IMG/VR virus record: IMGVR_UViG_3300033417_000006
Span: 4,281-68,280 of that record
From: a virus
Taxonomy: Duplodnaviria > Caudoviricetes
Reading direction: 5' to 3' (one strand)
DNA length: 64,000 nucleotides
The notes below the pieces were generated by a model. The model was not told the DNA's origin. It ran no database searches and saw only the letters and a list, made by a program, of their open reading frames with translations. Both the position numbers and the translations under genes were made by a program. This document shows positions 2,760 through 63,958 of this stretch, piece after piece (position 1 is the first letter of the stretch; each line of letters starts with the position of its first letter).

Positions 2760-3868
2760 TCCCATTCCTCCACCAAGTTCTCAAACCACTCGGCCCTTTT
2801 CCTGCGCCACGTCGGGACGCCGCGTTGGAACCCGCGCAGGCCCCCGTTCCAAACCGCGTATTCCTCCCACGGCAACGGCTCGCGTTTCAGCACAGCCAGG
2901 AAACGGCGGCGATTGAGCGCCCTGATCTTGAGCGCAACGGGTTCGGCTTCGTAACGGTTTGCTGCGAGCTTAAACGGTTTCGTTGTGACTTCGCCCCAGG
3001 CAAGCTTCGTGATCTGGAACCGGGACAGTTCGCCGGCGGACCCCACGGCGCCGTCCCTGTTCCCGGACTCGATCTGCGCCAGGGCGTAGAGGAAAGCGGC
3101 GTCGGACACAGCTTGGACTTGGTTCGCGAACAGCATGACAGCGATTGCTATGACGGCGAGTTTAGGCTTCCAGACTCTTGCAATATACCGCGCAAGCTCG
3201 AATGGTATTTTGGCGATCATGGCGGCCGTGGCCTTGCGGGCGTTGATCTTGGATGATGTTCTGCCACTGATTGAGTCAGGATCAGCGAACCAAGCACGGC
3301 CTGATTTGTGTTGCTTTACGCCATCTCCCAGGCGGTGGTATTCCCGATCACTATACGTCCTTGGCCCGCAATGACATTGGAATTTCATGCGTCTTTTCGT
3401 GACAATCGGCATTAGCGCCGGCACGTCGCCAAACAAGTGATAACTTCCGTAGTTCCACCGAGATCGTCCAACCCACGGTTGTGCCCCTCGTACATTTTCT
3501 ATGACGATCGGGCACTCGGCTTCCCGGCCAATACGAACGCAGGCGTCAAATAATGCATTAAGTTCAGCGATGCGTTCAGGGTGCGCGGAATCACGATACC
3601 AAGCCGCCAGAGCCTTGGCTCGCGTCCAAGGCATCGCCATGTAAGAATATTTTTGACAAGGAGGCGAGGCAACGATTAGTTGGACTTTTCCGCGAAATTG
3701 TCTGCCGTCAATGGTGCGAATATCTTGCAAGACGAGTTGTGCAGGGTAGCGATCTTCGCCATAGACGTGCTGTTCTATATCGAATCCGACTACATTCCAA
3801 CCCTCGGCCAATAAACCGTGCGACCATCCACCCAAACCGCAGCACAAATCTACCGCTAGCGGTTTCAT
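2756..3868 (-). CDS. C5-cytosine DNA methyltransferase fused in frame to a signal-peptide-like segment and a lysozyme/lytic-transglycosylase-like domain
   Basis: DLCCGLGG (I), SPPCQ (IV), IENV (VI), AKIPFELA; then KLAVIAIAVMLFANQVQA and ALAQIESGNRDGAVGSAGELSRFQIT; ATGA start at 3868. Confidence 0.8.
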   Translation of the reverse strand: MKPLAVDLCCGLGGWSHGLLAEGWNVVGFDIEQHVYGEDRYPAQLVLQDIRTIDGRQFRGKVQLIVASPPCQKYSYMAMPWTRAKALAAWYRDSAHPERIAELNALFDACVRIGREAECPIVIENVRGAQPWVGRSRWNYGSYHLFGDVPALMPIVTKRRMKFQCHCGPRTYSDREYHRLGDGVKQHKSGRAWFADPDSISGRTSSKINARKATAAMIAKIPFELARYIARVWKPKLAVIAIAVMLFANQVQAVSDAAFLYALAQIESGNRDGAVGSAGELSRFQITKLAWGEVTTKPFKLAANRYEAEPVALKIRALNRRRFLAVLKREPLPWEEYAVWNGGLRGFQRGVPTWRRKRAEWFENLVEEWE

Positions 3869-48613: not shown

Positions 48614-51600
48614 ATGCCAAGCACAGACGAAGAGATATTAGCGGAAGCCCGAAAGCAATTGCATGGGGGCGATCCTCGCACCGCAGAACCTACGGTGGCA
48701 GGACAGGGTCATCCGTCACGGCAATCCATTTTTGGGGTCAGGACTTCCGTTTCCGATGATGATGAGATATTCGCGGAAGCCCGGAGGCAGCAGAAAGCCA
48801 GTGCTATAGGTTTTCGTGAGGCGGCGCGGCGGGAATGGGAAAGAACACCTGGGGAGGAGCTTGTTCCATTCGGTGATGTTGGGAGACTAGTGACAGGAAA
48901 ATCCCCGACCTGGAAATTATATCGCGCCGCAGAAGTGGTTAGGCAAGGAGATGAAACTGATCCAGAATACGAGAGATCGTTGTTGTATCTCAAGGAATAT
49001 CAGGATGAACAGGCGCGTATTCGGGATGAGAGCAGGCGTAAAACTTTCATGGGCAAAGTCGGCAGCGGTATTGTGGGTATTGCCCCGAGATTGCCGAAAT
49101 ACCTCGTTGAATTCGGAGTGACAGGACCCCTCTACACCCTGGGAAGAAAGGTGGGATCGAAGTTATTGGGGAAGGGCGCGAAATCAGCGGTGAGCAAATT
49201 CGCGGGGCGCCAACTCGCAAGAGCCACTGGGGCGGCAGCACAAACGCCAGCGGTGATGGCAGGTAGTATCGGGGAAAGAACCATTCAAAGGCTGACTCCG
49301 TATTTAAATATCACCGAGGATGAAACCGGTAGATTGGAAGCCGCGTTTCAAGATACCGACGACAATTTTCTAAGCGCATTAACCAAATCCTTTGGAGAAG
49401 GATTCATTGAAACCGCGACAGAACGGAGCGGTTTGCATTTGATGAAGCCATTGAATAAGGCCGCGACAAAGCTCGGTTTGAAGCGGGCCATAACAGCGCG
49501 TTGGCTTGAAAAGAATCCCAATGCAACTGTGGATGATTTAATAACCAAACTTCGATCTAAGACGGCTTGGCATGGACCGATTGCCGAAATTCTCGAAGAG
49601 GAAGCCGGAAAAGCCGCTAGGGCCGGAGTCGGGCTTGAAGAATACAAACTGACAACATTGGATGAATTGGTTGCCATGGGGGCATCGTTTGCCCTGCCGG
49701 AAGCCGGGTTTCGCGGACTCCGTGGATTGAGCAGGTTAGCAACAATGAGGAGGGATTATGCCACTGATGAAAGGGCGGAGCAGGAAGGTCGTGAGCCGGA
49801 ATATCGCCGAACTGAGGCGGAGCGGGAGGAAGAAAGGCAAGATAGGGAACGTGCGATTGCGGAACAAAGAGCACGAGAGACGGGTAGCCGCGGCGGTCGC
49901 GCTACGCCAGGCGGGCCTGTCGAAGTTCGGGAAGAAGTGACGGAACCGAAAATCCCGATCATTGGCGGCGTCAACTCCGCTGATCTTCGTAACATTGCCT
50001 CTGCCCTTGAACCCGCTATTGATCGTGGGTTGGCAGCCGCGAAGGAGCGCGGGGATGTTTTCGGTGAAGCCAGGTTATCGACGAGACAAGGGCTTGTCCG
50101 GCAATACCTCGATGATCCAAGTCCTGCCAATGCAAAACGATTGGGTCGAGTTCTTGGACTTGAAATCAACGAAGATGCCGAGGGTGTACCGACGATCTAC
50201 GAGGCACTCAGGGATCGTGGGGCAACAATGGTGACGGAGGTAGAACGACCCAAAGGCGAGGCGAAGGCTATCGTTGAGTTCGAGGATGGATTGTGGTGGA
50301 GAACGGAACCAACGGGATTCCGGTATGGCCCATTTGGGAGTCGCGCGGATGCCATGGGAAGGGTGGCTAAACCGCCTAGCAAACCAGCCCCGGCCGCCGC
50401 TGAGCGTGTTGAAGAAGTGACGGAGGACGAGACTCAACCCAAGCCACCGGAGTTGATGCCGTTGGCAGGACTTGGGGCAGAAGAACTTGCGGAGGCGCTC
50501 AATCTCTATGCCGATAAATCTGCTGGATTTGACAAACGATCAGGCAAAACGGTTGGTTTTACCAGAACAACCAGGATAACTGCTGGCCTGCCGTTGTGGG
50601 AGAACATGACGCCGGACGAGCGCATGGCTGAGTTCAGGAGTCGCGCGCAGGAAGATTTCAAAAAGGCGTCTGAGGAAGCTGTAAACCCCGTGGAATACAT
50701 GATCGAACGGGCATTAGACCCATTGGACCCGATGTCGGGCATATATAAGATTCTGCTGCTGAATCGTGGGGCCGCAATCGAAGGTGGCAAGATAAGGTTA
50801 TCTCCAGAGCTTGAGTCGCTGCGGGCGGGCCGATCACTTCCAGGGGCAAAGCCTCCGCGTCCAATTATTTCTGGATCGCGCTGGTCCGCTGTAACACCAG
50901 TCAAATCCGCTGGCGTAGATGGTGTATGGGGCGTGGTTGATGCCGCTGATTTGGTGAGTTCAAACGATAGCGGTTACGATCAGAGGTTTCAGCCAAGGGA
51001 TCGTCGAAGAATGGCGAGTCGCGAGCAAATCGCGGAAATAGCTTCCAGGCTGCAACCGGAACGGCTCGGCGCATCCGAGACTACGGATTTAGGGTCTCCA
51101 ATTGTTGATGAACACAATCAAGTGCTTTCAGGCAATGGAAGGTTGGAGGCCATACGGCTTATTTACGATTCTCAGAGCGAGCGAGGAGCCGAATATAAGC
51201 AATTCGTTATGCGCGAGGCCCAAAGACTTGGGGTTGATCCAGCGAAATTAGAAGGGATTAAGCAACCCGTGCTTGTAAGGCGAGTTACGAATTTCGGCGA
51301 GATAACCAAGGGAGAATTTGCAAGGCAAAGCAACGAACAACAAGTCTTGGGGATGAGCGACGCGGAGAAGGCCAACCGTGACGCGGCTATGCTTGTTGAT
51401 AATCCAGGGTTGCTAGACATTTTTCTTCCCAATGAAAGTGGTGATGTTTTAGCCGCAAGCAATCGTGAATTTTTGAATAAGTTTATTCAGGGAACAGGGG
51501 ACCGGGCAACGCTGCTTAATGCCGATGGCAGTTACAACGTTAAGGCGCTCGGGCCGCGCGTGAAAGCGGCTGTATTGGGCGCACTTTTAGGAGCCGAAGA

Positions 51601-54600
51601 CAGAAACACAATTTCAAATTTAGTTGAACGCGCTGTTGATTTGAACATTGCGAACGTGGCTTCCGCGCTTCAAAACGCCGCGCCACGATTGTTGAAGTTC
51701 CGCGGCAATCCGTATGACCTCAGCCCGATTTTGAACCAGGCGATAAAAGATTTGGTAACGATCAGAACAGAGGGGCGGAAAGCGGAGGAATTTCTTGGGC
51801 AATCGACATTATTCGGGGATGCCCAACGGACCGCTGAATCGGATTACCTGCTTTTACAGTTTGCAAAACTCGGAAGCTCGAAGCAGATTGCAGAAGGACT
51901 GACTCGGTATGCTGAGCTTGCATCGAAAATTGATGTCACAACGCCGGACATATTCGGAGCTAAACTAGCAACCAGGGAAGAATTATTACAGCAAGCTTAT
52001 GAACGCAAACAAGCACCCGAAGCCAGCCAAACCGGTCTCCCGCTGGCAAAACCTCCAGGACAAGCTCCGCCAACCGGGCCACAGGCTCAACCTGCTGCAA
52101 AAGGCGTTCCAACACCGCCCGGTCCAGCCGCCGAAGCACCGGCGGTAACGCCGTTTGGTTCAGAGAATGTTTTGATCAGCGCACAACGAGCGGAAGAACT
52201 TAAGAAGCGCATCAAGGACAAGCTGAAGAACGTAAACATTGGAATTGACCCAACCATCTTCTCTGATGCCGTTCAACTCGGCGCATATTATATCGAAGGA
52301 GGGCTCCACCGATTTTCCGACTGGGCTGCCAAAATGTTGGAAGATTTAGGAGACGTAATCAAAGATCATCTAAGGAGTATTTATGAAACCGCCAGAGTCA
52401 CTATCGAATCGCCAAGCGGCGAAAGCCGTAGCGGACAACCCCCCGGTCTTCAACCCGGACTACTACCTCCAGGAGAGCGCATCGTCACCGCCCGACCTGA
52501 GCATACCAATGCCGCGGATGAGTCAGTCATCCCAAAAGAACTCCTCCCGCACCTTGATCCGCACCAGAGGCAAGGCTCTGCGACTGCGATAAGAAGCATG
52601 GAAGTCCGCGGCGGCATGTTGCTCGCCGATGCCGCTGGAGTTGGTAAAACTAGGCAAGGAATCACAGTCGGAAAGTACGAGGCTGATCGCGGATCAAAGG
52701 TCGTGATTGTAACGCCGTCGATGGTCATAAAGCAGAACTGGAAAAAGGGAACGTTTGGTGGCAGCTACGCCTACGACTCCGGCCAGATGGGCGTCAAGAT
52801 CAGGCTTGCTAGGGATGGCAATGTCAATCCAGGCGAGATCGGAATCACAACGCATGAGAACTGGAAGGACATAGCAGCGAACACCGACGGCAACACGGTT
52901 CTGATCATAGACGAGTGCTTTGTGCCTGGAACTAAAATCAAGATGGCCGATGGGACTCTGAAGGAGATCGAGAAAATAAAACCTGGCGAGTTTGTAAAGA
53001 ACGCATCTGGGTGCGGAGAGGTGGAAGCCGTAAGTAGGCGTTGGGCTGGATCGTTGGTAAAGATCGCTACGGAGGCTGGCAGCGTGATATGTACCCCAAA
53101 TCACCCGTTCCTTACACAACATGGATGGATTAAGGCTGGACAACTTAGCCAATCACACTATCTTAAAACCCATGATGAAACAATGCGAATGGTGTGGGGT
53201 TCGGTTTGTGGGGAAAATCGACCAGCCGAAACAGAGATTCTGCGGGACTTCCTGTTCGGCGAAATGGAGGACCAGCCGACCAGAATCGAAGGCGATGTAT
53301 TCGACGCCGCAATTCCTGAAACATCTTTCAGAAGGTTTGAAACGGGCGCACAGCTTGAATCCAAAACTTGCGGAGGCGGCTTCACGGCGTATGACGACGA
53401 ACAATCCAATGCGGATAGATGGAGTTCGGGAAAAGGTGTCAGCCACGCTTCAACGAATCGGCCACGGCCCGTCGGTCAGGGGTGGGAACGGAACTGGCCC
53501 AACAGCGGCGGAGCAGATTTTGTTGAGTGCTCTACCTGGGACGAAGCACAACCACGCCGTTTCGCTTGGAAAGAGAACAAAGGGCTATCCGACATGCTAC
53601 AAGGTCGATGTAGCCATGCCCGGAATCAGGATGGCAATAGAGTGCGACGGGTTATCCCATGGCGCTTTTGCGCGACAACTTCAGGACCGAAAGAAGGAGG
53701 CGAAACTGTTGGAATTAGGGTGGATAGTGTTGAGAGTGTCCAACAAAAGGATTTTACACGATACGGCGGCGGTAATTCTGGAGTTGAAGTCTATAATCTT
53801 CAGGTTTCAGGACATCCAAGCTACGTCCTATCCAATGGTGCGGTAGTCCACAACTGCCACTTCCTTAAGAATCAAAGCCAGCGATCACAGCACGCAACTC
53901 GTGCGATTGCAAAAGCGAAGTCGGTCCTGTTCATGTCCGCAACGCCTGGCGACAAACCTGAGCACATCTATTATCTCGCTCGCATGGGGATCATGGAAGG
54001 AAAGACGGTCCAACAGCAGCTTAGCGACCTTGGCATGACACTCGTAACCATCGACAAGATGGTTAAGGAGGCTGATGGCACTTGGCGAAAGCGACGGATT
54101 ACGTTCTGGGCTCCAGACCAGCGCGTTACTGATACCCAACGGCACGAACGGTTCAGCGCCCTGTTCGACCGAATGACCGCAAGTGGCGCGATGCTGAAGC
54201 GTGAGATCAGCATGAAAGGGACTCATGTCCAGGTGTTAAAGATTACGCTGCCTCCCGAAGCTCACGACGCACAGCAACTCATCATTGACACGGCTTTGCG
54301 AGCTTACCATGAATCGCATTTCGATGATGTGAAGGGACTTAGGAAAGCCAACATCCTCATGCACCTTCGGCGGCAACAGGAACCATTCAAGATTGCCTCA
54401 GCGGTGATGCTGGCACAACGCGAGTTGGCTGCTGGGCGGCAGGTGCTTATTTTCGTGTCGAGGGTCAATGAATCTGAGGCCGGCTTTAACGAGTACGTGA
54501 AGACGCTGTCTGGAGAAGTCGAGACGGTCCGGCATGTTGCTATGACGAGCGAAGGAACCGCTAAGTTGCTGCGCGAGGCACTCGAAGACGCCGGGATTCA

Positions 54601-57600
54601 CGACATAGCCGAGATTCATGGCGGAGCCGAGCAAGGCGCGTTGGAGGCGTTATCAGATTACCAGGGTGGCCGGAAGCGGGTGATGATTGCGACCATCGAG
54701 AGTGCAGGCACCGGGATTAACGCCGATGACATCGTCGGAAACCTACCCCGGTCCATGATCGTCGTGACTGCACCGTTTGACGCCGTCAGCAACGTTCAAG
54801 CGGCGGGTCGTATCTGGAGGCTCAAGACGCTGAGCGGCTCGAATTATTTCTTTCTGTTCGGAGACACCTCCGTTGACGATTGGAACGCCGACATCATCGG
54901 ATCGAAGATGAAACAACTCGGTGCCATCGTTGAGGGCCAGATTAGAAAACTGGATATTTCGGACCCGGACCTTGACAGCACAGACGATTACCACGAAACG
55001 ATGCGAGGTCAGCCGGCTGGGCCGTCAACGGCGGTGGTGCTCGAAAAGTTTCCGCAGTTGGAATGGAAACCGTTCCAGACCAAAGGCGGCAGGCAGATGT
55101 TCGTTGCGTCTGCAACGCCTGCGTTCTGGAAGTGGTGGAACGCGAACGGCAAAAGGGATAATGCGCTCGGCGTCTCGGTAACTAAGTATAAAGAGCAATG
55201 GCAGGTATGGTCGGACAAACCTTTGATTGTCAGAGGCCAGTTGCGCGAGGAACAACCGCTTTTCGGAGCACCGGAGACCGTTGAGCAACAGAAAGCCAGG
55301 GAATTAGCTGAGCAAAAAAGGCGCGCTGAAGCCGAAGCCAAACGTAAACTGGAAGAGCGCGCGTCGAAAAAACTAACGGGCACAGCCGGAGACCTCGGTC
55401 AGAAAGACCTTTTCGGCGGCGAAACCGATCTTTGGGCCATGAAAGAGGCGAGTGGCGACCAACCAACGCTTGATGGCATAGCCCAAGATATTTATGGCAA
55501 AGACTATGATGATTTGACCCAGGACGAAAAAGGTGTTACGGATGTTACCTATGAAGCCGAACTCAGGGTATCCTCCAAAAAAGAAACCCGGCGAGAAGGG
55601 ATATACCCCGAGGCAGGTGAGCCGATTGTCGAGACCCGCCCCATACGACAAGCCCGCGCCCAAACCACTGCTGATCTTAGCCGAACCCACGAAGAACTGC
55701 TTGCGGATGCAGAGCAATTAAGCGCGGATGTTACGCGGCTTAAACATGAACTTTTTAACGCCAAAGGTCAGCCATACGAAAGCAGGCTTCAGGCGCAACT
55801 GGAATCTGCCCAGGCCAATTTGCTGGAAATAACCGGGGAATTGAATTCCCGAATGGACCGGTTGCGTGGAATACCACGCTGGGTCGAACTTCAAACAAAG
55901 AGCAAGCGCGGCAGCATAACATCCGCCGAAGAGCTTGAATTAACCGGCATCCGAGCGCAAGCAGATCGGGAAGCTCGATCCGAACGTGCGAGTGCCACAC
56001 AAGCGCAATTAGGTGAACCGCGAGCCATGTTTTACTCCCGGCTGACGCGAACAGTCGAGCAATCTCAACAGGGTCGGGCCACGGGCGCACAGTGGAAGGC
56101 CACGATCAAAGGCAGCAAACTCGGGGTAAGCCAAGGCGAAATGGATTTGGTTGGCATCGAGGATTTGGAGGACGGCAAGACCTACACGAAACAGGAAGTA
56201 CTGGATTATCTCAAGGCGAATGAAGTGGTGGTCAAGGATGTGACGCTGGGAAAAGAACCGGTAGCTTCGTTGCCACTCAGGCGGTTTATGTATCGAGAGG
56301 GCATTGAAAGCCCCACCACCACGGATGAGTGGCTGAACCTTTCAGGTAGGATTGAAGACAAGGCAAAGGCGTTGTCAATGCGAGGCGACGACAGGCAGGC
56401 GGCAGAGTTCTTTGAAATGGCAGAAGCCGCGAACAGGGCCGCCGAAGGACTTGATCCTGAAACCGGAAGCACGCAAGGCCAAACCCGCTTCTCCACCTAC
56501 CAGCTTCCCGGCGCGAAGAAGGGGAGTTATCGCGAAGCGCTGTTGACGGTGCCGGAAGATGCTGGTCTTTCGAAGATGACAGACGCGCAAATGCGGGATT
56601 TTTACCAGCAGGCATTTGGCGTCATGCCTACTGAGGCGATGGATACGGAGACCCTACGCAAAGACATCGAGAAGAAACTACGCTACCACGGAACAGATTT
56701 CGTTGAGCGCATGGGTGGAGTTAAGTCGCCGATGACGGTTTGGCGCGACGGCCACTCCCAATTCTCCGACATAGCCAATCCAATAGTCCGCCTCCGATTC
56801 AACGAACGCACAACCTCCGACGGTAAGCGGATGCTGTTCCTTGAAGAAATCCAACCCCCGCTAAAAGGCGAGTTCGAGAAGATGCCCGCGCTGTTCCAGA
56901 AGAACTGGCGGGAGATTGCGTTTAAGTATGCTTTGAAGTTAGCCGCATCGAGCAGCGAGAGCCTTGACCTTCAACGCCTCAGAAACCCAAAGAGCATTTG
57001 GGAACTTGGTGAGAATGTCTTTGGGCGAGAAATGGCATCGGCGATGCCGCTGGAGGTTGTGGATGGTGGAGTGCTGTCCGCTTTTCATCACGACCAAGTT
57101 CTCCAGGCGGTTGTCTCGAATCTTCCCGTTGACGTGGTGAACAACCTCACACGACTCAAGATTTCTCCCGATAGCCTGCTCCGCAATCCATCTATGGTCT
57201 TTGAGACACTTCCCGTCTCTGCTCGTAACTCGATAGCGCGAGGGGTTCTCGGTGCGATGCGCGAGGTTGGCGCACTCCTTGGAGCAAAACTGGCGAGTGG
57301 CCTCAATCGAGGGGTAGATGTGGAAATCCTTCCCGCACTGATGGCAAGCCATTTGGAGGTCAGAGAAGTTGTGGGAGCGCTTGCCCCTCAATCCCTTTAC
57401 CATGATTTCAATGCGCGTGGGGGCTTGGAAAATCGCCCTGCATCGCTTGGAACAAAACAACCCGCGCCCGTTTTTTATGTAACAGGAAGGGGCATAGAAA
57501 GGCTTCCGACAAACGGGGCAGAGTTTTTGAGCACCGTTCTTCCGGCAAGCGGTAGAGCAGAATCGGGCGTCGGCGCGACTAGGCCGAACGCTGAAGGTGG

Positions 57601-60600
57601 AGGAGCACGTCTCGCAGATGTTCTGGACTGGCATAACAAAATCCTACGCGAAACAGGCAACTCAAAGCAAGGAGATTTCACACCCGAAATTTCAGCACTT
57701 GGCTGGACCACGGGCGAGCAGCAGGCGGAGCGGTATGATTTGAGCAAGCAAGTTGACGCCATCAAGGTCAACGTCAGAACCGATGGCAACTTCAACATTG
57801 AAGTTAAGCCACCTGGAAATCTCGGATTCAGAGCCATCGCATCTGGTATAAAACCAGGCGAACTGGAGAACTATATCGGGAAGGATTTATCTCGGAAGGT
57901 TTTAGAAGGATTGGATTCGGCATCGGAATTTGTTTACGAAGGGGTTAGCCTCAAAGTCGGTGGTGAGGGCCTGACAAAACTCTACGATGTGGACTTTCGC
58001 AACGTCGTCAACAACCTGCCAGCGGTGAAGAAGTCGGGGCAGAAGGTCGGGACGGCGGAGATTCCAAAACCCTCTGGAAGGCAAATCTCCGAAGAGAATC
58101 AGTTAGGAAGGATGAAGGAAGGAAGCTGGGTCGTTCAAGAAGAAGGTGGACAGTTTCTCTATGGAACACCATCCGAAGCGCAAGCAACTGCATGGGCAGA
58201 ACGCCAAGGGCTTAAAAATTACAAAGTCTTGGAGAATGATAAATACGGAGAGACCGATTTAATCCACTCCCTCACCCTGACTCCGCAAATTCGCGAATCC
58301 GTCATGGGCGGGCAAGCACTGTTTCAGTTGCCAGCGGGTTCCAAAGGATTGGCCAGCACTCAACAACTCATAACGCAACAAATCAAGGCGAAGCGCGGCA
58401 TCATCGAGCAGGCGCCGGAGATCGCGGTTGGATTGGAAGACATTCTTGCCATGGTTGAAAGGAGCGATTTGCACTCCGCTGTCAAAGGTGTGCTGGTCAA
58501 CTTTCTGCGAAAACCATTTGCGAAGAAGCTGGATTTGAGCCGGTTGACCCTGGAACTCCGGGATTATTTGGATCACGGTTATTCCGGCGAGATCATTGGG
58601 AGCCTGATTCGAATTGGTCGAGACATGGTCACGCCAACAACGTTACCGCATGAGATCGACCATTTCTTATTCAATTTCCTGCCGCAAGAGAGCCGTGACA
58701 TCATCGAAGCCGAGCGACGCAGAAGGTTGGAGGCAAGGGCCAGGGAACTCGGGATTGACTTGAAAGATTTGCCCGTGGATTTGGTGGCGGGCATGATGGA
58801 GTCCGAACATTTTGCGGAAGCCCTTGCGGCTGGGGCGCTCCCTCGATCACTTTATCCATACATCAATGCCGCAGAGTTTTCGGCTTGGATTACCAGTGCC
58901 GAGGCGGAACTTGAATACGCGCAGCGCGGGGCGCTCCGTGACATCATAAACACCATCATGGATTGGTTACGAGGTTTGATGGATGGCTTGAGGCGAATGG
59001 CGGGTTTTACGCCGTCATTCGAGCAGGTGATGAGAGAAAAGCTCGCGGGCCGGTACATGAACAGTGCCGAGAGCGGATCGGCATTTGATAAGACCCGAAG
59101 GGCATCATTTGCCGAGGACCCCAAACATGCACAACGTTTGGTTGCACGAGCCAAAACAAGGGGCGAAGAGGCTGAGAAAGTCGAGCGTCAACTTATTGCA
59201 ACCCAGGTTGCGGCTCCGATTAAATTCATCGAAAAACATGGTCCCAAGGATAATCCCGTTGTCTCACGGATGTTGGGATTATTCGATATGCAGAACATCA
59301 TGGCGGCATCGGAAACAAGTGATGCCCCGGAATATCGGGAGTTAAGGGAGCAACTGAAAAACACCGCCTATTTTCACGTAGCGGCGTGGGAGGTCGGGGC
59401 GCGGTTTCATGTGCAGAAACAGCGATGGCAGGAAATCCTTGATGACAGGGATGTCTTGGAAAAAGAAATAGGGAGTCCTGGCTTCAAGGCAAAGCTGAAA
59501 CGGCTATCGGAAACTCAACTTGCCGAGGAAGCCATAACGGATGGGATAAAGCAATTCATGGCATCATCGTCGGCGGCGGTTCAAAAGGCGGTGACGAGAA
59601 TGAAGACGGAGGCATTGAGTGAAGCTGAATTGGAACGGTTGATGGCCGAGGTAAGAGACGGAGAATCAAGAAAAGAATACGAGGCTGCAATTCGCCAGGC
59701 CATCAAGGATATTATCAGGATTTTGCCTTCCGAAAAATTGTCGCAACTTTATGACATCGGCGAGCACCATGAGTTGGAGTCTGAATATAACCGGTTAAAA
59801 TCCGAGTTGTATGGCGTGGAAAAGACGACGCAACCCATGGACCCGAACATTGTCAGGTGGGCATTCGAGGCCATGCGGGTTGCTCCGAGAGAAACCCGGA
59901 AGATCGCGGTATCGAGGTTGATTCAAACCAGCCGTGAATTCTCGAAGGAACTCAGTGATTACGAAAAACAGGTTGTGACGGAAATGGAGGCATCGCCACG
60001 AAAAGCCGTGACGAAAATGTTGGAGAAACAACGGACATTAACCCGGAAACAACAGATGTTGCAACTTGCTTTCGAGGAGTTGCACAAGGACTTGCAGAAG
60101 AAGATCAGGGATTACGGGAACCATGTGAGCGCAGGCGCGGTTGTCGAGGCCATTTTTGTCGATGCAGACGTAAGAGCGTATGAAAACACGGTGAATGTTG
60201 ACGGTGGCATCGAGGCCCGCCCGATGGCGCGTGTTCAGGTAAATGGCGAATGGATCAACGTCAAGGATTTGCATTACGACGTGGTTTCCGGCAACCCGAT
60301 CTTCGTGAGGCCCAACGGACAATTATTGCAAGTGAACATAACCGGGGATGTGAAGCAATTCGCGGCGGAACGGGAGAAGCTGCGGGCATTGCTCCAGGAA
60401 TGGTATGATTGGAAAGATGTTCAGGACAAATTGGCTCCCGAGGTAAGGGACCCGCACTACCAGTTTTTTCTCAACACAATATCTGCGATCAATCATATCT
60501 ATCTCTCGACGCGCGTGAGCCAGCCCGCGAGCGCGGTGGCGCCTGCAAATATCCTGAGCAACCAACCATTGAGCGATTGGGATATGCCACGATTTTTGAT

Positions 60601-63600
60601 TGACGATCTTGCAAACAGGATTGGCGGCGCCGTGAAAGTTTTGGGCCAGAATTTCAACAGGGTTTTCCTGCATTTACGGGCGATTCTTGCCGATAACGTT
60701 TATAAACAGAAGAATTTAGCCCGCCGCGCGGTGAACAGTTTGGGTCTAAAAAAGGGCAGGTCATGGGGAGAAGCTTACATGGTGATGTATGACAAGGTTC
60801 TGAAACCATTGGCGGCGATGGCGCAAAGACCGGAGGCTCGATTCGAGGTCGGTTACGAAATTGTCGATGGTTACAAGGTGACACCTGAACTCCTGCAATA
60901 TCTGGAATGGCAATCCAAGATTGCGGCGCAAGCCTTCAATGCCGTGCAAGAATTGGTGCCTGGAGAGCGACCGGGCCTGGCTTTTACCCCGGTGATCGAG
61001 GACGCCGTTCTGGGATATTCTTTCTTCGGAAAATCAATTCCTGTGAGTCGTTACACACTGCCGTTTGGCGGGTATAGCAATGATGCTCTTGCCTTTGGCC
61101 GGGCCTATGCCCAGGCGAAACTGGAAGGTGACAGGGGCAAACAGATGCAATTGCTCAAGAACAACTGGGAATTGTTGGCATCGTATATTGTTGATCGGGC
61201 GAGCATGGCCCGGGTGGTATCTGAATTTGAACCCGCCTATGAATTGTTGGCGGAAAAGATAAGGGCAGGGACCATCGAGGAGAAAAGCTTTGATTGGGTT
61301 GCGAGCCGGATAGCCGAAATCATGCCGGCTGAAACCGAGGCGGAAATAAGCGAGGAAGAACATCTTGAAAACATCGGGGAAAAACTGGTGTCGGAATTGG
61401 ATAACCTCGTTAATTTCTTCAACAAAATTGAGGGAGAGAAATCCGCAACGGTCCATATCAAGACGCCGGACAAAAAGAATTCATTTACGGCGCGTCGCCA
61501 TGACCAGACCTTGCCCTATTACTTCTTGGATTATGGCTGGCGAACATCCGGCAATTTCCTGAACTTCATGTACAACGGCCATACCCATGCCTACGAGCGA
61601 TTCGCGCATGGCCTTGAAGCCGTGCTGAAAGATTTGCAACGGCAACAATCCGAGTTGACGACGAAGTATAAGGAAAGAGCGGAGAGACTCGGCATAACGG
61701 AGGAACGATCGAGGAAAGAGCTTGTGAATGAAAACAAACTCGCTTTTCTCAACGGCCAGACCTTTGACCAGTATTGGGGTTTGGAGAAACGCATTCGGCA
61801 ACTTAAGAAAGCGATTCAGAACACCATGGAAGTTTGGGCCGGCGGTAACGACGCCGAGATGGACATCAGGGCTTACATGCGATTTCAGCGCAGCGTGATT
61901 GGCGGAATTCTGAGCGGGCCGGCGACGCTTATACGAAACGGCGGGGGATTAGCTTACCTTGGGAATGTTTTGGCGAGGACCATGAGGAGCGGCGTTGAGG
62001 CCGGTGGGGTGGCGGCATGGAATATCATTTGGAACGGCATGTTCAAGTATGTGCCATCGGCGGCTTTGGGCGTGGCGAAGATCGGGGTTAAGCTGCCGGG
62101 ATCGGCCTATACATTTCTGAAAACATTGGCAACGACCAGGGACGTTCAGATGTCCGTGGTGAAAGCTGTTTCACCCTTGATCCAAGAATTGTCGAAGAAT
62201 GTTTATAGCAGGATCGAGGATTACAGGACCATGGAAGAAAATCGGTTGATGATGCCAATTGATAGCGTCAATGAATTCGAGGCGAAAATATTCGATTTAG
62301 CCAATGCCGGCCTCATTATCGAGCGACGCCGGGGCCTCATGGAAACCACGGCGCTATCGTTGCTAGGTTTCTTCGACGACTTCGTTCTGACGGCGCTGAC
62401 AAAACCTGTGTTGCCAAGGCTCGGCGATGCCAGCATTAACAGCGCTGCTCTAGCCTCTGGGTCGACGGTGTTGAATCGAATCGAGAAACGGTTGCGGGTG
62501 CTCTTCGAGCAATGGAAGAAAAGCGGGGCCATCGAGACGAGATTTAATTTTACCGACAGGAACGATCCAAGGAACGTGTTTGCCGGGCAGGAAATATTTC
62601 CAGGAAAAGTTGAGACGTTATCAAGACAAAAGATGGCTTTGTTGGAGCAGTATTTCGATTGGACAGGCAAGACTTTCCACGAGGCCGCCTATGATTTCAT
62701 CAAGGCATTGCATGAGGGGCGCGAGGCTGAATTCATGGATAAACACGCAAGACTTCAGTTTGCGGAACAAATCGAGCAAGAGATCAATGTCGCCGGGCCG
62801 TTAAACCGGCCGCAATGGACTCAAAAGGCGGGTTTCTTCAATCAGATCATGGCGCCTCTCATGGGCTGGAATGTTCATGCTTTACGAACATTTCCGAAAG
62901 TGTTGTCTCGACCCGGTGTGAATCCGCATACCAGCCGATTGGTGATGTGGATCACCATTGCCACCATGGTATTGCCAGTGGTTATAGCCTTGAACCTGGC
63001 TCAAGACACAGGTCTCGAAGAATTGATCCGGTTATTCAGCAAACACGGATTAGGAATCGAAAGGCCGACGCGCCAACCATGGGAACGAGAGGGAACCCGG
63101 AGCCAAGCCATCGCCACCTTGATTGCCGCCGTAAATCCCGTGCCGTACCTGGCAACGGTAGTCAACACGGCTCTGAACGATATGCCCAACAGGGCGAGCT
63201 ATGACATCAATCCGGTGATGATAAGCAAACTCAATGACGTGGTGACTTATATGGGGGGTGTGGTCAATACCGGGGACCCCTTGTATGGATTGAATTATCT
63301 CGTGAAAGGGTTCCTGCCGGTATCAGAGGCTTTTCTGAACAGGATACCGTGGTTACGGGGAACTGCAGAGGCCCTGAGCGCGCGGCGCCTCATGACGAGA
63401 TTCGGACCGCAGGACCTTCTGAGGGAAAAGGTTGGGGGCGGCGGCATGTCGCGATTGGCGACACCGTTGACACCTTATGCCGATCGAATGCTGAACGCTG
63501 CCATGCAAGAGGATTGGCCGGAATTCAACGCGCAGTATGCCGAGGCGGTCGAAGTCGCCCGGGAATTGGGCCGTGACGAGCCGGAGGAGACGGTACAGGA

Positions 63601-63958
63601 CGCCTTTCTTGGCAGGAACCCATACAGCAGGGCATTCCGACAAAAGCTCTCCCAAAGCCAACGTAGCGCGTTTATGGGCAAGCTAGGGGCAGACCAAAGG
63701 GCTTTGGTGGAGGGTGTGGAGCGTAAATTCAGGCGTGGCGCGGATTTGTTGGGGCGAAAAACCAGTTTTGCCAAGGAAGATGAATTTGCGACTGTGCCGG
63801 CCTTGGCCATGATTGCGCCTCGCTACACGACCAGGGGCTTGTCACGACGACGCTCAGTTTTCGCCAGGGGCCCAATCGGGCGACTCGGGAAACCCAGTGC
63901 CAGGTATCGGCGCCGTGGCCTTTCCAGAATGGGGCGCCGCCCCAAGCTTAGCTTCTAA
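48614..63958 (+). CDS. 5114-aa polyvalent (DarB-like) virion/ejection protein: ParB-like domain, SF2 helicase (intein-containing), HExxH metallopeptidase-like motif, helical C-terminal region
   Basis: QPRDR...LGSPIVD...VLSGNGR (ParB-like); LADAAGVGKT, IIDE/CH, SATPG, AGTGIN, QAAGRIWR (helicase); PHEIDH. Confidence 0.85.
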   Translation: MPSTDEEILAEARKQLHGGDPRTAEPTVAGQGHPSRQSIFGVRTSVSDDDEIFAEARRQQKASAIGFREAARREWERTPGEELVPFGDVGRLVTGKSPTWKLYRAAEVVRQGDETDPEYERSLLYLKEYQDEQARIRDESRRKTFMGKVGSGIVGIAPRLPKYLVEFGVTGPLYTLGRKVGSKLLGKGAKSAVSKFAGRQLARATGAAAQTPAVMAGSIGERTIQRLTPYLNITEDETGRLEAAFQDTDDNFLSALTKSFGEGFIETATERSGLHLMKPLNKAATKLGLKRAITARWLEKNPNATVDDLITKLRSKTAWHGPIAEILEEEAGKAARAGVGLEEYKLTTLDELVAMGASFALPEAGFRGLRGLSRLATMRRDYATDERAEQEGREPEYRRTEAEREEERQDRERAIAEQRARETGSRGGRATPGGPVEVREEVTEPKIPIIGGVNSADLRNIASALEPAIDRGLAAAKERGDVFGEARLSTRQGLVRQYLDDPSPANAKRLGRVLGLEINEDAEGVPTIYEALRDRGATMVTEVERPKGEAKAIVEFEDGLWWRTEPTGFRYGPFGSRADAMGRVAKPPSKPAPAAAERVEEVTEDETQPKPPELMPLAGLGAEELAEALNLYADKSAGFDKRSGKTVGFTRTTRITAGLPLWENMTPDERMAEFRSRAQEDFKKASEEAVNPVEYMIERALDPLDPMSGIYKILLLNRGAAIEGGKIRLSPELESLRAGRSLPGAKPPRPIISGSRWSAVTPVKSAGVDGVWGVVDAADLVSSNDSGYDQRFQPRDRRRMASREQIAEIASRLQPERLGASETTDLGSPIVDEHNQVLSGNGRLEAIRLIYDSQSERGAEYKQFVMREAQRLGVDPAKLEGIKQPVLVRRVTNFGEITKGEFARQSNEQQVLGMSDAEKANRDAAMLVDNPGLLDIFLPNESGDVLAASNREFLNKFIQGTGDRATLLNADGSYNVKALGPRVKAAVLGALLGAEDRNTISNLVERAVDLNIANVASALQNAAPRLLKFRGNPYDLSPILNQAIKDLVTIRTEGRKAEEFLGQSTLFGDAQRTAESDYLLLQFAKLGSSKQIAEGLTRYAELASKIDVTTPDIFGAKLATREELLQQAYERKQAPEASQTGLPLAKPPGQAPPTGPQAQPAAKGVPTPPGPAAEAPAVTPFGSENVLISAQRAEELKKRIKDKLKNVNIGIDPTIFSDAVQLGAYYIEGGLHRFSDWAAKMLEDLGDVIKDHLRSIYETARVTIESPSGESRSGQPPGLQPGLLPPGERIVTARPEHTNAADESVIPKELLPHLDPHQRQGSATAIRSMEVRGGMLLADAAGVGKTRQGITVGKYEADRGSKVVIVTPSMVIKQNWKKGTFGGSYAYDSGQMGVKIRLARDGNVNPGEIGITTHENWKDIAANTDGNTVLIIDECFVPGTKIKMADGTLKEIEKIKPGEFVKNASGCGEVEAVSRRWAGSLVKIATEAGSVICTPNHPFLTQHGWIKAGQLSQSHYLKTHDETMRMVWGSVCGENRPAETEILRDFLFGEMEDQPTRIEGDVFDAAIPETSFRRFETGAQLESKTCGGGFTAYDDEQSNADRWSSGKGVSHASTNRPRPVGQGWERNWPNSGGADFVECSTWDEAQPRRFAWKENKGLSDMLQGRCSHARNQDGNRVRRVIPWRFCATTSGPKEGGETVGIRVDSVESVQQKDFTRYGGGNSGVEVYNLQVSGHPSYVLSNGAVVHNCHFLKNQSQRSQHATRAIAKAKSVLFMSATPGDKPEHIYYLARMGIMEGKTVQQQLSDLGMTLVTIDKMVKEADGTWRKRRITFWAPDQRVTDTQRHERFSALFDRMTASGAMLKREISMKGTHVQVLKITLPPEAHDAQQLIIDTALRAYHESHFDDVKGLRKANILMHLRRQQEPFKIASAVMLAQRELAAGRQVLIFVSRVNESEAGFNEYVKTLSGEVETVRHVAMTSEGTAKLLREALEDAGIHDIAEIHGGAEQGALEALSDYQGGRKRVMIATIESAGTGINADDIVGNLPRSMIVVTAPFDAVSNVQAAGRIWRLKTLSGSNYFFLFGDTSVDDWNADIIGSKMKQLGAIVEGQIRKLDISDPDLDSTDDYHETMRGQPAGPSTAVVLEKFPQLEWKPFQTKGGRQMFVASATPAFWKWWNANGKRDNALGVSVTKYKEQWQVWSDKPLIVRGQLREEQPLFGAPETVEQQKARELAEQKRRAEAEAKRKLEERASKKLTGTAGDLGQKDLFGGETDLWAMKEASGDQPTLDGIAQDIYGKDYDDLTQDEKGVTDVTYEAELRVSSKKETRREGIYPEAGEPIVETRPIRQARAQTTADLSRTHEELLADAEQLSADVTRLKHELFNAKGQPYESRLQAQLESAQANLLEITGELNSRMDRLRGIPRWVELQTKSKRGSITSAEELELTGIRAQADREARSERASATQAQLGEPRAMFYSRLTRTVEQSQQGRATGAQWKATIKGSKLGVSQGEMDLVGIEDLEDGKTYTKQEVLDYLKANEVVVKDVTLGKEPVASLPLRRFMYREGIESPTTTDEWLNLSGRIEDKAKALSMRGDDRQAAEFFEMAEAANRAAEGLDPETGSTQGQTRFSTYQLPGAKKGSYREALLTVPEDAGLSKMTDAQMRDFYQQAFGVMPTEAMDTETLRKDIEKKLRYHGTDFVERMGGVKSPMTVWRDGHSQFSDIANPIVRLRFNERTTSDGKRMLFLEEIQPPLKGEFEKMPALFQKNWREIAFKYALKLAASSSESLDLQRLRNPKSIWELGENVFGREMASAMPLEVVDGGVLSAFHHDQVLQAVVSNLPVDVVNNLTRLKISPDSLLRNPSMVFETLPVSARNSIARGVLGAMREVGALLGAKLASGLNRGVDVEILPALMASHLEVREVVGALAPQSLYHDFNARGGLENRPASLGTKQPAPVFYVTGRGIERLPTNGAEFLSTVLPASGRAESGVGATRPNAEGGGARLADVLDWHNKILRETGNSKQGDFTPEISALGWTTGEQQAERYDLSKQVDAIKVNVRTDGNFNIEVKPPGNLGFRAIASGIKPGELENYIGKDLSRKVLEGLDSASEFVYEGVSLKVGGEGLTKLYDVDFRNVVNNLPAVKKSGQKVGTAEIPKPSGRQISEENQLGRMKEGSWVVQEEGGQFLYGTPSEAQATAWAERQGLKNYKVLENDKYGETDLIHSLTLTPQIRESVMGGQALFQLPAGSKGLASTQQLITQQIKAKRGIIEQAPEIAVGLEDILAMVERSDLHSAVKGVLVNFLRKPFAKKLDLSRLTLELRDYLDHGYSGEIIGSLIRIGRDMVTPTTLPHEIDHFLFNFLPQESRDIIEAERRRRLEARARELGIDLKDLPVDLVAGMMESEHFAEALAAGALPRSLYPYINAAEFSAWITSAEAELEYAQRGALRDIINTIMDWLRGLMDGLRRMAGFTPSFEQVMREKLAGRYMNSAESGSAFDKTRRASFAEDPKHAQRLVARAKTRGEEAEKVERQLIATQVAAPIKFIEKHGPKDNPVVSRMLGLFDMQNIMAASETSDAPEYRELREQLKNTAYFHVAAWEVGARFHVQKQRWQEILDDRDVLEKEIGSPGFKAKLKRLSETQLAEEAITDGIKQFMASSSAAVQKAVTRMKTEALSEAELERLMAEVRDGESRKEYEAAIRQAIKDIIRILPSEKLSQLYDIGEHHELESEYNRLKSELYGVEKTTQPMDPNIVRWAFEAMRVAPRETRKIAVSRLIQTSREFSKELSDYEKQVVTEMEASPRKAVTKMLEKQRTLTRKQQMLQLAFEELHKDLQKKIRDYGNHVSAGAVVEAIFVDADVRAYENTVNVDGGIEARPMARVQVNGEWINVKDLHYDVVSGNPIFVRPNGQLLQVNITGDVKQFAAEREKLRALLQEWYDWKDVQDKLAPEVRDPHYQFFLNTISAINHIYLSTRVSQPASAVAPANILSNQPLSDWDMPRFLIDDLANRIGGAVKVLGQNFNRVFLHLRAILADNVYKQKNLARRAVNSLGLKKGRSWGEAYMVMYDKVLKPLAAMAQRPEARFEVGYEIVDGYKVTPELLQYLEWQSKIAAQAFNAVQELVPGERPGLAFTPVIEDAVLGYSFFGKSIPVSRYTLPFGGYSNDALAFGRAYAQAKLEGDRGKQMQLLKNNWELLASYIVDRASMARVVSEFEPAYELLAEKIRAGTIEEKSFDWVASRIAEIMPAETEAEISEEEHLENIGEKLVSELDNLVNFFNKIEGEKSATVHIKTPDKKNSFTARRHDQTLPYYFLDYGWRTSGNFLNFMYNGHTHAYERFAHGLEAVLKDLQRQQSELTTKYKERAERLGITEERSRKELVNENKLAFLNGQTFDQYWGLEKRIRQLKKAIQNTMEVWAGGNDAEMDIRAYMRFQRSVIGGILSGPATLIRNGGGLAYLGNVLARTMRSGVEAGGVAAWNIIWNGMFKYVPSAALGVAKIGVKLPGSAYTFLKTLATTRDVQMSVVKAVSPLIQELSKNVYSRIEDYRTMEENRLMMPIDSVNEFEAKIFDLANAGLIIERRRGLMETTALSLLGFFDDFVLTALTKPVLPRLGDASINSAALASGSTVLNRIEKRLRVLFEQWKKSGAIETRFNFTDRNDPRNVFAGQEIFPGKVETLSRQKMALLEQYFDWTGKTFHEAAYDFIKALHEGREAEFMDKHARLQFAEQIEQEINVAGPLNRPQWTQKAGFFNQIMAPLMGWNVHALRTFPKVLSRPGVNPHTSRLVMWITIATMVLPVVIALNLAQDTGLEELIRLFSKHGLGIERPTRQPWEREGTRSQAIATLIAAVNPVPYLATVVNTALNDMPNRASYDINPVMISKLNDVVTYMGGVVNTGDPLYGLNYLVKGFLPVSEAFLNRIPWLRGTAEALSARRLMTRFGPQDLLREKVGGGGMSRLATPLTPYADRMLNAAMQEDWPEFNAQYAEAVEVARELGRDEPEETVQDAFLGRNPYSRAFRQKLSQSQRSAFMGKLGADQRALVEGVERKFRRGADLLGRKTSFAKEDEFATVPALAMIAPRYTTRGLSRRRSVFARGPIGRLGKPSARYRRRGLSRMGRRPKLSF
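53137..53171 (+). promoter_or_regulatory. Leaderless promoter embedded in the intein coding sequence
   Basis: TGGACA-N16-TATCTT-N7-ATG(53172); the -10 is identical to that of recT. Confidence 0.6.
53172..53846 (+). CDS. Vsr/DUF559-like endonuclease with N-terminal zinc finger, overprinted in the +1 frame inside the intein
   Basis: CEWC...FCGTSC; YKVDVA...IECDGLSHG...QDRKKE..L..LGWIVLRVSN. Confidence 0.85.
   Translation: MMKQCEWCGVRFVGKIDQPKQRFCGTSCSAKWRTSRPESKAMYSTPQFLKHLSEGLKRAHSLNPKLAEAASRRMTTNNPMRIDGVREKVSATLQRIGHGPSVRGGNGTGPTAAEQILLSALPGTKHNHAVSLGKRTKGYPTCYKVDVAMPGIRMAIECDGLSHGAFARQLQDRKKEAKLLELGWIVLRVSNKRILHDTAAVILELKSIIFRFQDIQATSYPMVR
56939..57634 (-). CDS. Zinc-finger HNH homing-type endonuclease nested antisense inside the giant ORF
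   Basis: Three CxxC...FCSxxC modules; HRWIAEQAIGRNL...EVVHHVNG...DNRLENL...HSTIH. Confidence 0.9.
   Translation of the reverse strand: MPVQNICETCSSTFSVRPSRADARFCSTACRKNGAQKLCPVCRKPFYAPSCYIKNGRGLFCSKRCRAIFQAPTRIEIMVKGLRGKRSHNFSDLQMACHQCGKDFHIYPSIEATRQFCSKECANLAHRTENPSRYRVTSRDGKCLKDHRWIAEQAIGRNLESCEVVHHVNGKIRDNRLENLVVMKSGQHSTIHNLQRHRRCHFSPKDILTKFPNALWVSEALKVKALAARCG
57635..57670 (-). promoter_or_regulatory. Leaderless promoter of the antisense HNH gene
   Basis: TTGCTT-N18-TAGGAT-N6-ATG; same -35 as terL and same -10 as the head operon promoter. Confidence 0.6.

Follow-up and report, generated by a model that had tools for sequence, protein, structure and literature searches.

How can a complete nuclease gene lie inside the coding sequence of another protein, on the opposite strand, and leave that sequence open? 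This question is raised by a 64,000-nucleotide (nt) stretch of viral DNA (Duplodnaviria; Caudoviricetes), positions 4281-68280 of the 68-kb IMG/VR viral contig IMGVR_UViG_3300033417_000006, which was analysed as a whole and is hereafter called the window. Within it, a minus-strand open reading frame (ORF) for a 231-amino-acid (aa) zinc-finger HNH endonuclease is contained in a giant plus-strand gene for a 5114-aa polyvalent protein (Table 1). The explanation that we favour, with a probability of roughly 0.75, is that the locus holds a minimal homing-type HNH cassette, placed on the strand opposite to the host gene, which would be translated through rather than spliced out.

An HNH endonuclease gene in register with a giant host gene

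The minus-strand ORF matches Pfam HNH_3 over aa 147-188 (E-value (E) 5.9e-10; 39.1 bits against a curated cut-off of 24.8) and zf-FCS (E 1.8e-5), and PHROG HNH families match it with E-values down to 6.5e-16. Its database relatives, about 235 aa long and related over their full length, have the same architecture, in which the HNH core comes after three CxxC...CSxxC fingers. All Cys, His, Asn and Asp residues that are invariant among these relatives are kept in the window's HNH, and H166, H167, N169, D174, N175, R176 and N179 are invariant with them. The ORF lies codon-in-register with the giant ORF, its ATG being the host's CAT (His 3007, 57632-57634) and its TAA the host's TTA (Leu 2776, 56939-56941). 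A zinc-finger HNH of this length, strand and register, with its start and stop codons superimposed on a host His and a host Leu, had been put forward in a preliminary description of the locus, and the coordinates, the codon positions and the Pfam and PHROG matches bear this out.

The AlphaFold2 (AF2) model of the HNH has a mean predicted local distance difference test score (pLDDT) of 77. The best structural match of its C-terminal half is I-HmuI (1u3e), at a low Z of 4.2 (root-mean-square deviation 2.9 over 61 residues), followed by the HNH domains of Cap5, Cas9, GVE2 and I-PpoI, every Z being below 5. A Foldseek search of the PDB with the model gave no significant match, and a profile search of PDB sequences recovered the FCS zinc fingers only.

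The length of the ORF alone is not significant, since about 0.66 antisense gaps this long (235 codons) are expected in a 5114-codon ORF with 107 shadow-stop codons, and the contig is a low-depth metagenome assembly. A chance antisense ORF or a misassembly would therefore not be surprising on these two counts, but such an artefact has almost no chance of accounting for the locus as a whole: the family matches are significant, the entire architecture is present with its invariant residues, and the adenine-thymine (AT) skew changes sign exactly over the ORF. Moreover, an independently built Logan contig spans the right junction of the insertion without mismatch, and the same layout is found in many unrelated assemblies. 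We conclude that the minus-strand ORF is, judging from its sequence, a real and intact zinc-finger HNH_3 endonuclease gene.

The insertion is absent from all aligned homologues

According to the preliminary description, some 250 shadow-like residues follow AFKYALKLAA in the giant protein, and their flanks were expected to be adjacent in homologues. This proved exactly right when the giant protein was aligned with its homologues. In about 40 database homologues retrieved by BLASTP, the alignment extends to residue ~2778-2780 and resumes at ~3026-3028, while their own coordinates are contiguous, and the site is also empty in 14 of 14 viral-contig relatives of the interrupted domain. In total, about 55 aligned homologues are all insert-free at the site, which in multiple alignments reads ..FKWALRHAAENG joined directly to FDSVGWTTGEQQAERYDLS.. 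The segment is not a conserved folded domain in homologues, nor is the giant gene split here. The insertion corresponds to host residues 2782-3025 and is almost completely taken up by the HNH ORF and the 54 nt that separate its start from the right border; at the left border the HNH frame overruns by 5-6 codons and its stop into host sequence.

An insert-free allele was also found in a related soil contig, in which ..AAENGFDRIA joins the window at 57703 to ..WTTG.., with 6 differences in 49 nt, as in a diverged relative. Insert-bearing and insert-free phages therefore co-occur in the samples of that study. In two soil DNA runs, represented by low-depth contigs that leave the left junction uncovered, no joint across the insertion was seen. 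A repeat search at the borders of the insertion gave no convincing terminal direct or inverted repeats, and thus no sign of a transposon or of a target-site duplication.

Related cassettes recur in giant polyvalent proteins

A search with the single HNH sequence recovered 2 loci only, and an alignment-based search recovered 80 viral loci with 89 HNH genes. Seven in-register antisense HNH copies are present in 6 of the 80 loci (one locus has two). The open frames that surround them are 1092-2126 codons long and have polyvalent proteins as matches, and an embedding in sense, within an ORF of more than 400 aa, was seen for none of the 89 related HNH genes. The peptides that the host frame encodes across such inserts (shadow peptides) were used as a second probe. 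A profile built from eight of them and searched against 1.84 billion cluster representatives matched 1527 protein clusters at E<=0.001 and 443 at E<=1e-10. Among the best 148 of these 1527 matches, 129 are at least 1000 aa long and the median is 2443 aa, so that the shadow motif, which the preliminary description had thought worth seeking elsewhere, is found there mostly in giant proteins. Two matches examined as DNA, L105 and L106, each contain two intact in-register antisense HNH ORFs (four in total, E 7e-31 to 3e-18).

One copy in each of these two genes (L105:3609-4256 and L106:7209-7805) occupies the very loop site of the window, flanked by ..AAENG / ..AAEL and ..SWDTG / ..GWTRG. The site thus displays the presence/absence polymorphism of a homing gene, being empty in the ~55 homologues and in the soil contig and occupied in the window, L105 and L106. 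The copies of L105 and L106 at this site share 65% identity with each other and 28-34% with the HNH of the window; the latter is most closely related (42%) to the L105 copy at the other site. The site has therefore seemingly been colonised by more than one HNH sublineage, a pattern that hints at repeated colonisation or target switching. Resolution of the HNH tree is poor, with support for 8 of 84 branches; the embedded copies cluster in it more than under shuffled labels (5 changes versus a shuffled mean of 7.8; 1 of 500 shuffles), which does not allow a single origin to be claimed.

This distribution bears on the possibility that the HNH has been domesticated, for competition with co-infecting phages, for DNA packaging or for antisense control of the giant gene, and is no longer mobile. 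The gene is intact with conserved upstream signals, and part of the literature on phage HNH genes describes them as also working with terminases, as domestication would have it. Such a role fits poorly with a site that is empty in some 55 relatives and occupied in three, with other copies at many other sites and domains, with two sublineages 28-34% identical at one site, and with the distance of the HNH gene from the packaging genes; we regard domestication as very improbable.

Two further observations were made on these loci. Giant genes with two in-register antisense HNHs are found in L032 (442-987, 1399-2028), L105 (2790-3497, 3609-4256) and L106 (6453-7037, 7209-7805), and in L105 and L106 both copies lie inside the same GNAT-like domain. 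In L020, a free-standing-looking HNH (2971-3492) is the sister (Shimodaira-Hasegawa-like approximate likelihood ratio test, SH-aLRT, 99) of the embedded L042:2956-3519, and its shadow frame is also stop-free, at only 235 codons; it may be a copy that has recently left a long ORF or has still to enter one.

The host frame remains open through the avoidance of three codons

When two ORFs face each other in register, a stop arises on one strand only where the other has TTA, CTA or TCA. Among the 32 Leu and Ser codons of the HNH (14 and 18, respectively), none of the three occurs, in agreement with the count given in the preliminary description. At the host's synonymous usage, in which these codons make up 16% of Leu and 13% of Ser, such a complete lack is expected with a probability of 0.0075. 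The host frame is open across the insertion because these three codons are not used.

The in-register antisense frame is also the one most easily kept open. In free-standing relatives of the HNH, stops are sparser in it than in any other alternative frame (3.1 per 100 codons), and no antisense frame but this one is free of stops in any relative (7 of 82 versus 0 of 82 for each of the other two). Every embedded copy is in register because synonymous Leu and Ser changes alone can remove all stops there. Among the embedded copies checked at the DNA level, the window's and 11 others, the host frame is stop-free across the HNH in 12 of 12.

The insertion has no features of an intron or an intein

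A search of Rfam at E<=10 over 56300-58300 found no intron family, only three chance snoRNA/flavivirus rows, and covariance models revealed no ribozyme core of a group I or group II intron. The 786-nt RNA around the insertion is no more structured than its shuffles (fold z-score 0.18). Because only ~54 of the 732 nt lie outside the opposite-strand HNH ORF, there is no room for a ribozyme. At the protein level, the shadow peptide has no Pfam match at E<=0.1 and no PHROG match, in keeping with the lack of intein motifs stated in the preliminary description. No Hint splicing blocks are present in the insertion, the terminal residues of an intein are lacking, and the sole His-Asn precedes a Lys, 20 residues before the border. 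The same Pfam search picked up the genuine intein of the giant protein, which served as a positive control. Translational bypassing of the T4 gene 60 type was rejected on length, the insertion having 732 nt and the T4 gap 50 nt.

The insertion could still be an intron, either of an unrecognised type or a strongly degenerate member of group I or II, that is removed from the host mRNA, the open frame then being incidental. HNH genes are frequent in phage group I introns, I-HmuI, the best fold match, being an example, and since Rfam holds described families only, a new ribozyme would escape it. Against this stand the small space left by an ORF on the other strand, the empty Rfam search and the ordinary fold score. 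In addition, a spliced intron would not need an open host frame, yet all 12 copies have one, which therefore speaks against splicing, and hundreds of predicted giant proteins read through. We consider such an intron highly unlikely. The preliminary description had left the choice between a selfish element tolerated as a translated insert and an unrecognised splicing intron; on the lack of the insertion in every homologue at a highly conserved position, the Rfam search, the fold score, the scarcity of space and the open frames, the former is favoured, with read-through as its presumed mode of expression.

The insertion is predicted to fall in a turn of a GNAT-like domain

No match for the interrupted domain was obtained in the Pfam search of the giant protein. 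An AF2 model of the domain with its insert, built from a 15-row alignment, has flanks with pLDDT 80-90 (including the last 70 residues of the N-terminal part) and an insert mostly below 50, for a model mean of 62.6. Comparison of the domain by VIA-align gave GNAT acetyltransferases in nearly all of the best 50 rows (TacT2, Z 9.6; AtaT, 9.2; TacT3, 9.0), and these alignments span both flanks of the insertion; Foldseek against the PDB with the domain model gave weak GNAT rows only, none of them significant. In the model, the insertion is predicted to lie at the turn that leads from a helix of the GNAT-like fold (..ALKLAA) to a strand (GWTT).

On both sides of the insertion the invariant columns of the domain are kept, 52 of 52. 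The N-terminal part has 44-54% identity to homologues, and the window's domain as a whole is 48-53% identical to close relatives, which is what those relatives share with each other. This speaks against decay of the interrupted domain, though a recent insertion would look alike. These data have to be set against the alternative that the insertion killed the GNAT-like domain, that the frame is open only for the sake of the 2100 residues downstream, and that the damage is tolerated because this domain is dispensable. Polyvalent proteins are strings of semi-independent modules, the insertion is inside a fold and not in a linker, and P0121 and P0132 carry two inserts in the same domain, all of which would suit a dead domain. 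The invariant positions kept and a divergence no greater than that of insert-free relatives argue otherwise, with the reservation just made for a recent insertion, as do the location in a helix-to-strand turn and the occupation of the same site in three diverged hosts that keep the flanking motifs. We consider loss of the domain unlikely.

Candidate expression signals of the HNH gene

The preliminary description had assigned to the HNH a promoter of its own, TTGCTT-N18-TAGGAT-N6-ATG. This sequence is indeed present, and the homologous element L105a lends the proposal support, having TGGCTT-N18-TATAAT-N6-ATG in the same position. A consensus scan of 56500-58100 found no sigma-70-type site, TTGCTT-N18-TAGGAT remaining below threshold, and an AGGA 7 nt ahead of the ATG could equally serve as a ribosome-binding site (Shine-Dalgarno). 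Among the embedded copies, TAnnnT stands exactly 6 nt ahead of the chosen ATG in 7 of 12. The TAnnnT-N6-ATG pattern is suggestive of leaderless or near-leaderless HNH transcripts. A control with automatically chosen start codons found it in 2 of 6 embedded and 6 of 46 free-standing copies; it is therefore a lead that falls short of proof, and embedded copies are not alone in having it.

As a side observation, a Shine-Dalgarno sequence is not recognisable in the 25 nt before the ATG of most window genes (e.g. 48614, 36861, 40704, 47375); the phage's host may use Shine-Dalgarno-poor or leaderless initiation.

A cassette that would be translated through

In the explanation that we favour, a cassette made up of the HNH gene and about 54 nt of its own upstream signals would have inserted in-register antisense into a surface loop of the GNAT-like domain. 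The host mRNA would remain unspliced, and the ribosome would read through it, so that the domain would bear, and tolerate, an additional loop of 244 residues, for the most part unstructured. The HNH would be made from its own antisense, probably leaderless, transcript and would cut insert-free alleles of related co-infecting phages, whereupon repair would copy the cassette in, that is, homing. Selection would purge copies with a stop in the host frame, because a stop would cost 2100 downstream residues. Read-through, HNH expression, cleavage and homing are thus steps that we infer from the sequence.

Several points weigh against this explanation. First, the borders are known only to within a few codons, and the ENGFD residues of the empty site are without clear counterpart in the window's host gene. 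Second, the seven other embedded HNH copies have TTA, CTA or TCA at 0 of 126 Leu and Ser codons, as opposed to 27% in 82 free-standing relatives (15% in a subset matched for guanine-plus-cytosine content), but the embedded set was picked by its open frame, so that this contrast is partly built in; independently of that selection, the open frame goes on to both sides for more than 1000 codons with homology to polyvalent proteins. Third, model residues 361-430, inside the shadow, are predicted to be helical with pLDDT 60-80, so that the loop may not be wholly disordered. Finally, in 3 of the 80 loci (L029, L030, L037) the HNH lies between antisense ORFs of 300-740 aa without a common frame, and gene-splitting insertions may thus also exist.

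On balance, we also lean towards a wider reading, in which in-register antisense HNH cassettes would form a distinct and widespread class of homing elements inside coding genes, especially those of giant polyvalent virion proteins, and would be neither introns nor inteins. They would be rendered harmless by the purging of three codons and expressed leaderless via a -10 box 6 nt before the ATG, and sites such as AAENG/FDxVGWTTG (the slash marking the joint) would be recurrent targets of more than one HNH sublineage.

Relation to known systems

The closest precedents are the ShiLan domain or 'hidden HNH' elements in mycobacteriophage DNA methylase and helicase-methylase genes (Arsenault, Gosselin & Gogarten 2025, PMC11855218; first described in PMC9957025). 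In both cases a zinc-finger HNH, read in a frame other than that of the host, lies in a patchy insertion of a phage gene, the host frame is stop-free and no features of an intron or an intein are present; in both, predictions place the insert in a loop outside the host fold, and leaderless HNH expression is proposed. The two differ in layout: the ShiLan HNH shares the strand of its host gene, in the +3 frame, and would come from the host transcript, whereas that of the window is on the minus strand, in register, with promoter-like signals of its own. The hosts differ as well, methylase genes in the one case and a 5114-aa polyvalent protein, with a shadow profile matching 1527 clusters, in the other. 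Antisense or reverse-strand cases are not mentioned in the ShiLan paper (0 occurrences in PMC11855218), and literature searches found no published description of the antisense in-register form. The window's element is probably an opposite-strand variant of the published 'hidden HNH'.

Homing endonucleases borne by introns and inteins are well known, and I-HmuI sits in a group I intron of the SPO1 DNA polymerase gene. The window's element resembles this type in its HNH fold, in its location in a conserved gene, at a site that is itself highly conserved, and in its presence/absence polymorphism. It differs in being antisense and in having neither ribozyme nor Hint domain, so that harm to the host gene would be avoided by an open frame and not by splicing. 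Free-standing HNH and GIY-YIG genes are also known to split phage genes, such as mobE in nrdA of Aeromonas phage Aeh1 and the gene 39/60 region of T4. There too, an endonuclease cassette without intron or intein lies within a coding gene, but the host gene is broken into two polypeptides that reassemble, whereas here the host ORF is continuous. Finally, in the mitochondria of Campsomeris wasps, cox2 has an in-frame insertion with antiparallel overlapping ORFs and an HNH-like nuclease, qnu (PMC5374615). The in-frame insertion, the HNH-like nuclease and the antisense overlap recall the window; the differences are that the genome is that of an animal mitochondrion, that the insertion is a cluster of several ORFs and that the host gene gives two separate transcripts and proteins.

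If our explanation is true, the window illustrates a third route, beside RNA and protein splicing, by which a homing gene can reside within an essential coding sequence, namely by being translated through on the other strand. Because they are overlapped by a longer ORF, such HNH genes are never reported by standard gene callers; hundreds to thousands of nucleases in phage metagenomes would thus be unannotated, and some 'domains' of giant proteins would be mirror images of HNH genes. The locus would also be a testable example from nature of two proteins whose codons lie face to face on the two strands, marked by a clear selective signature in the choice of synonymous codons. The insertions would mark permissive loops of giant anti-defence proteins and constitute a source of compact, possibly site-specific nucleases whose target sites are already known.

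The giant host gene and its neighbourhood

Table 1. Coordinates of the features discussed (positions in the window)
Feature	Position	Strand	Remarks
HNH endonuclease gene, 231 aa	56939..57634	-	three FCS-type zinc fingers, HNH_3 core at aa 147-188, conserved C-terminal ..KFPNALW.. motif
Insertion, 732 nt (244 host codons)	56957..57688, borders +-9 nt		without counterpart in any aligned homologue
Candidate promoter	57641..57670	-	TTGCTT (57670-57665), 18-nt spacer, TAGGAT (57646-57641), 6 nt, ATG
N-terminal part of GNAT-like host domain	56006..56956	+	ends in helix ..FKYALKLAAS
C-terminal part of GNAT-like host domain	57689..58348	+	begins again with ..ISALGWTTGEQQAERYDLSKQV..
Giant host gene	48614..63958	+	5114-aa polyvalent phage protein; single ORF, open throughout

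Polyvalent proteins of phages and conjugative elements are very long chains that join several unrelated conflict-related domains (Iyer et al. 2017, PMC5512222). The giant protein of the window comprises a ddrB-ParB domain, a Sno/SNF2-type helicase split by a Hint intein, the GNAT-like domain and a long C-terminal region, and its homologues are metagenomic proteins of 2800-7200 aa with ART-PolyVal, methylase, LPD and InPase families. On the domain families of the protein and of its homologues, it is therefore a polyvalent phage protein. The gene is the last in a block of genes on one strand, among which are tail-fibre-like and virion structural genes.

The Hint intein occupies aa 1435-1747 of the giant protein (window positions 52916-53854), where it interrupts the helicase DE/CH motif between DE and CH. 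This intein holds, on the same strand and in the +1 frame, a 224-aa ORF (53172-53846) that matches DUF559/Vsr-like endonucleases (E 4.3e-7, above the cut-off) and REase_MTES_1575. A second 'hidden' nuclease, lying inside the intein and in sense with the giant gene, may thus be present.

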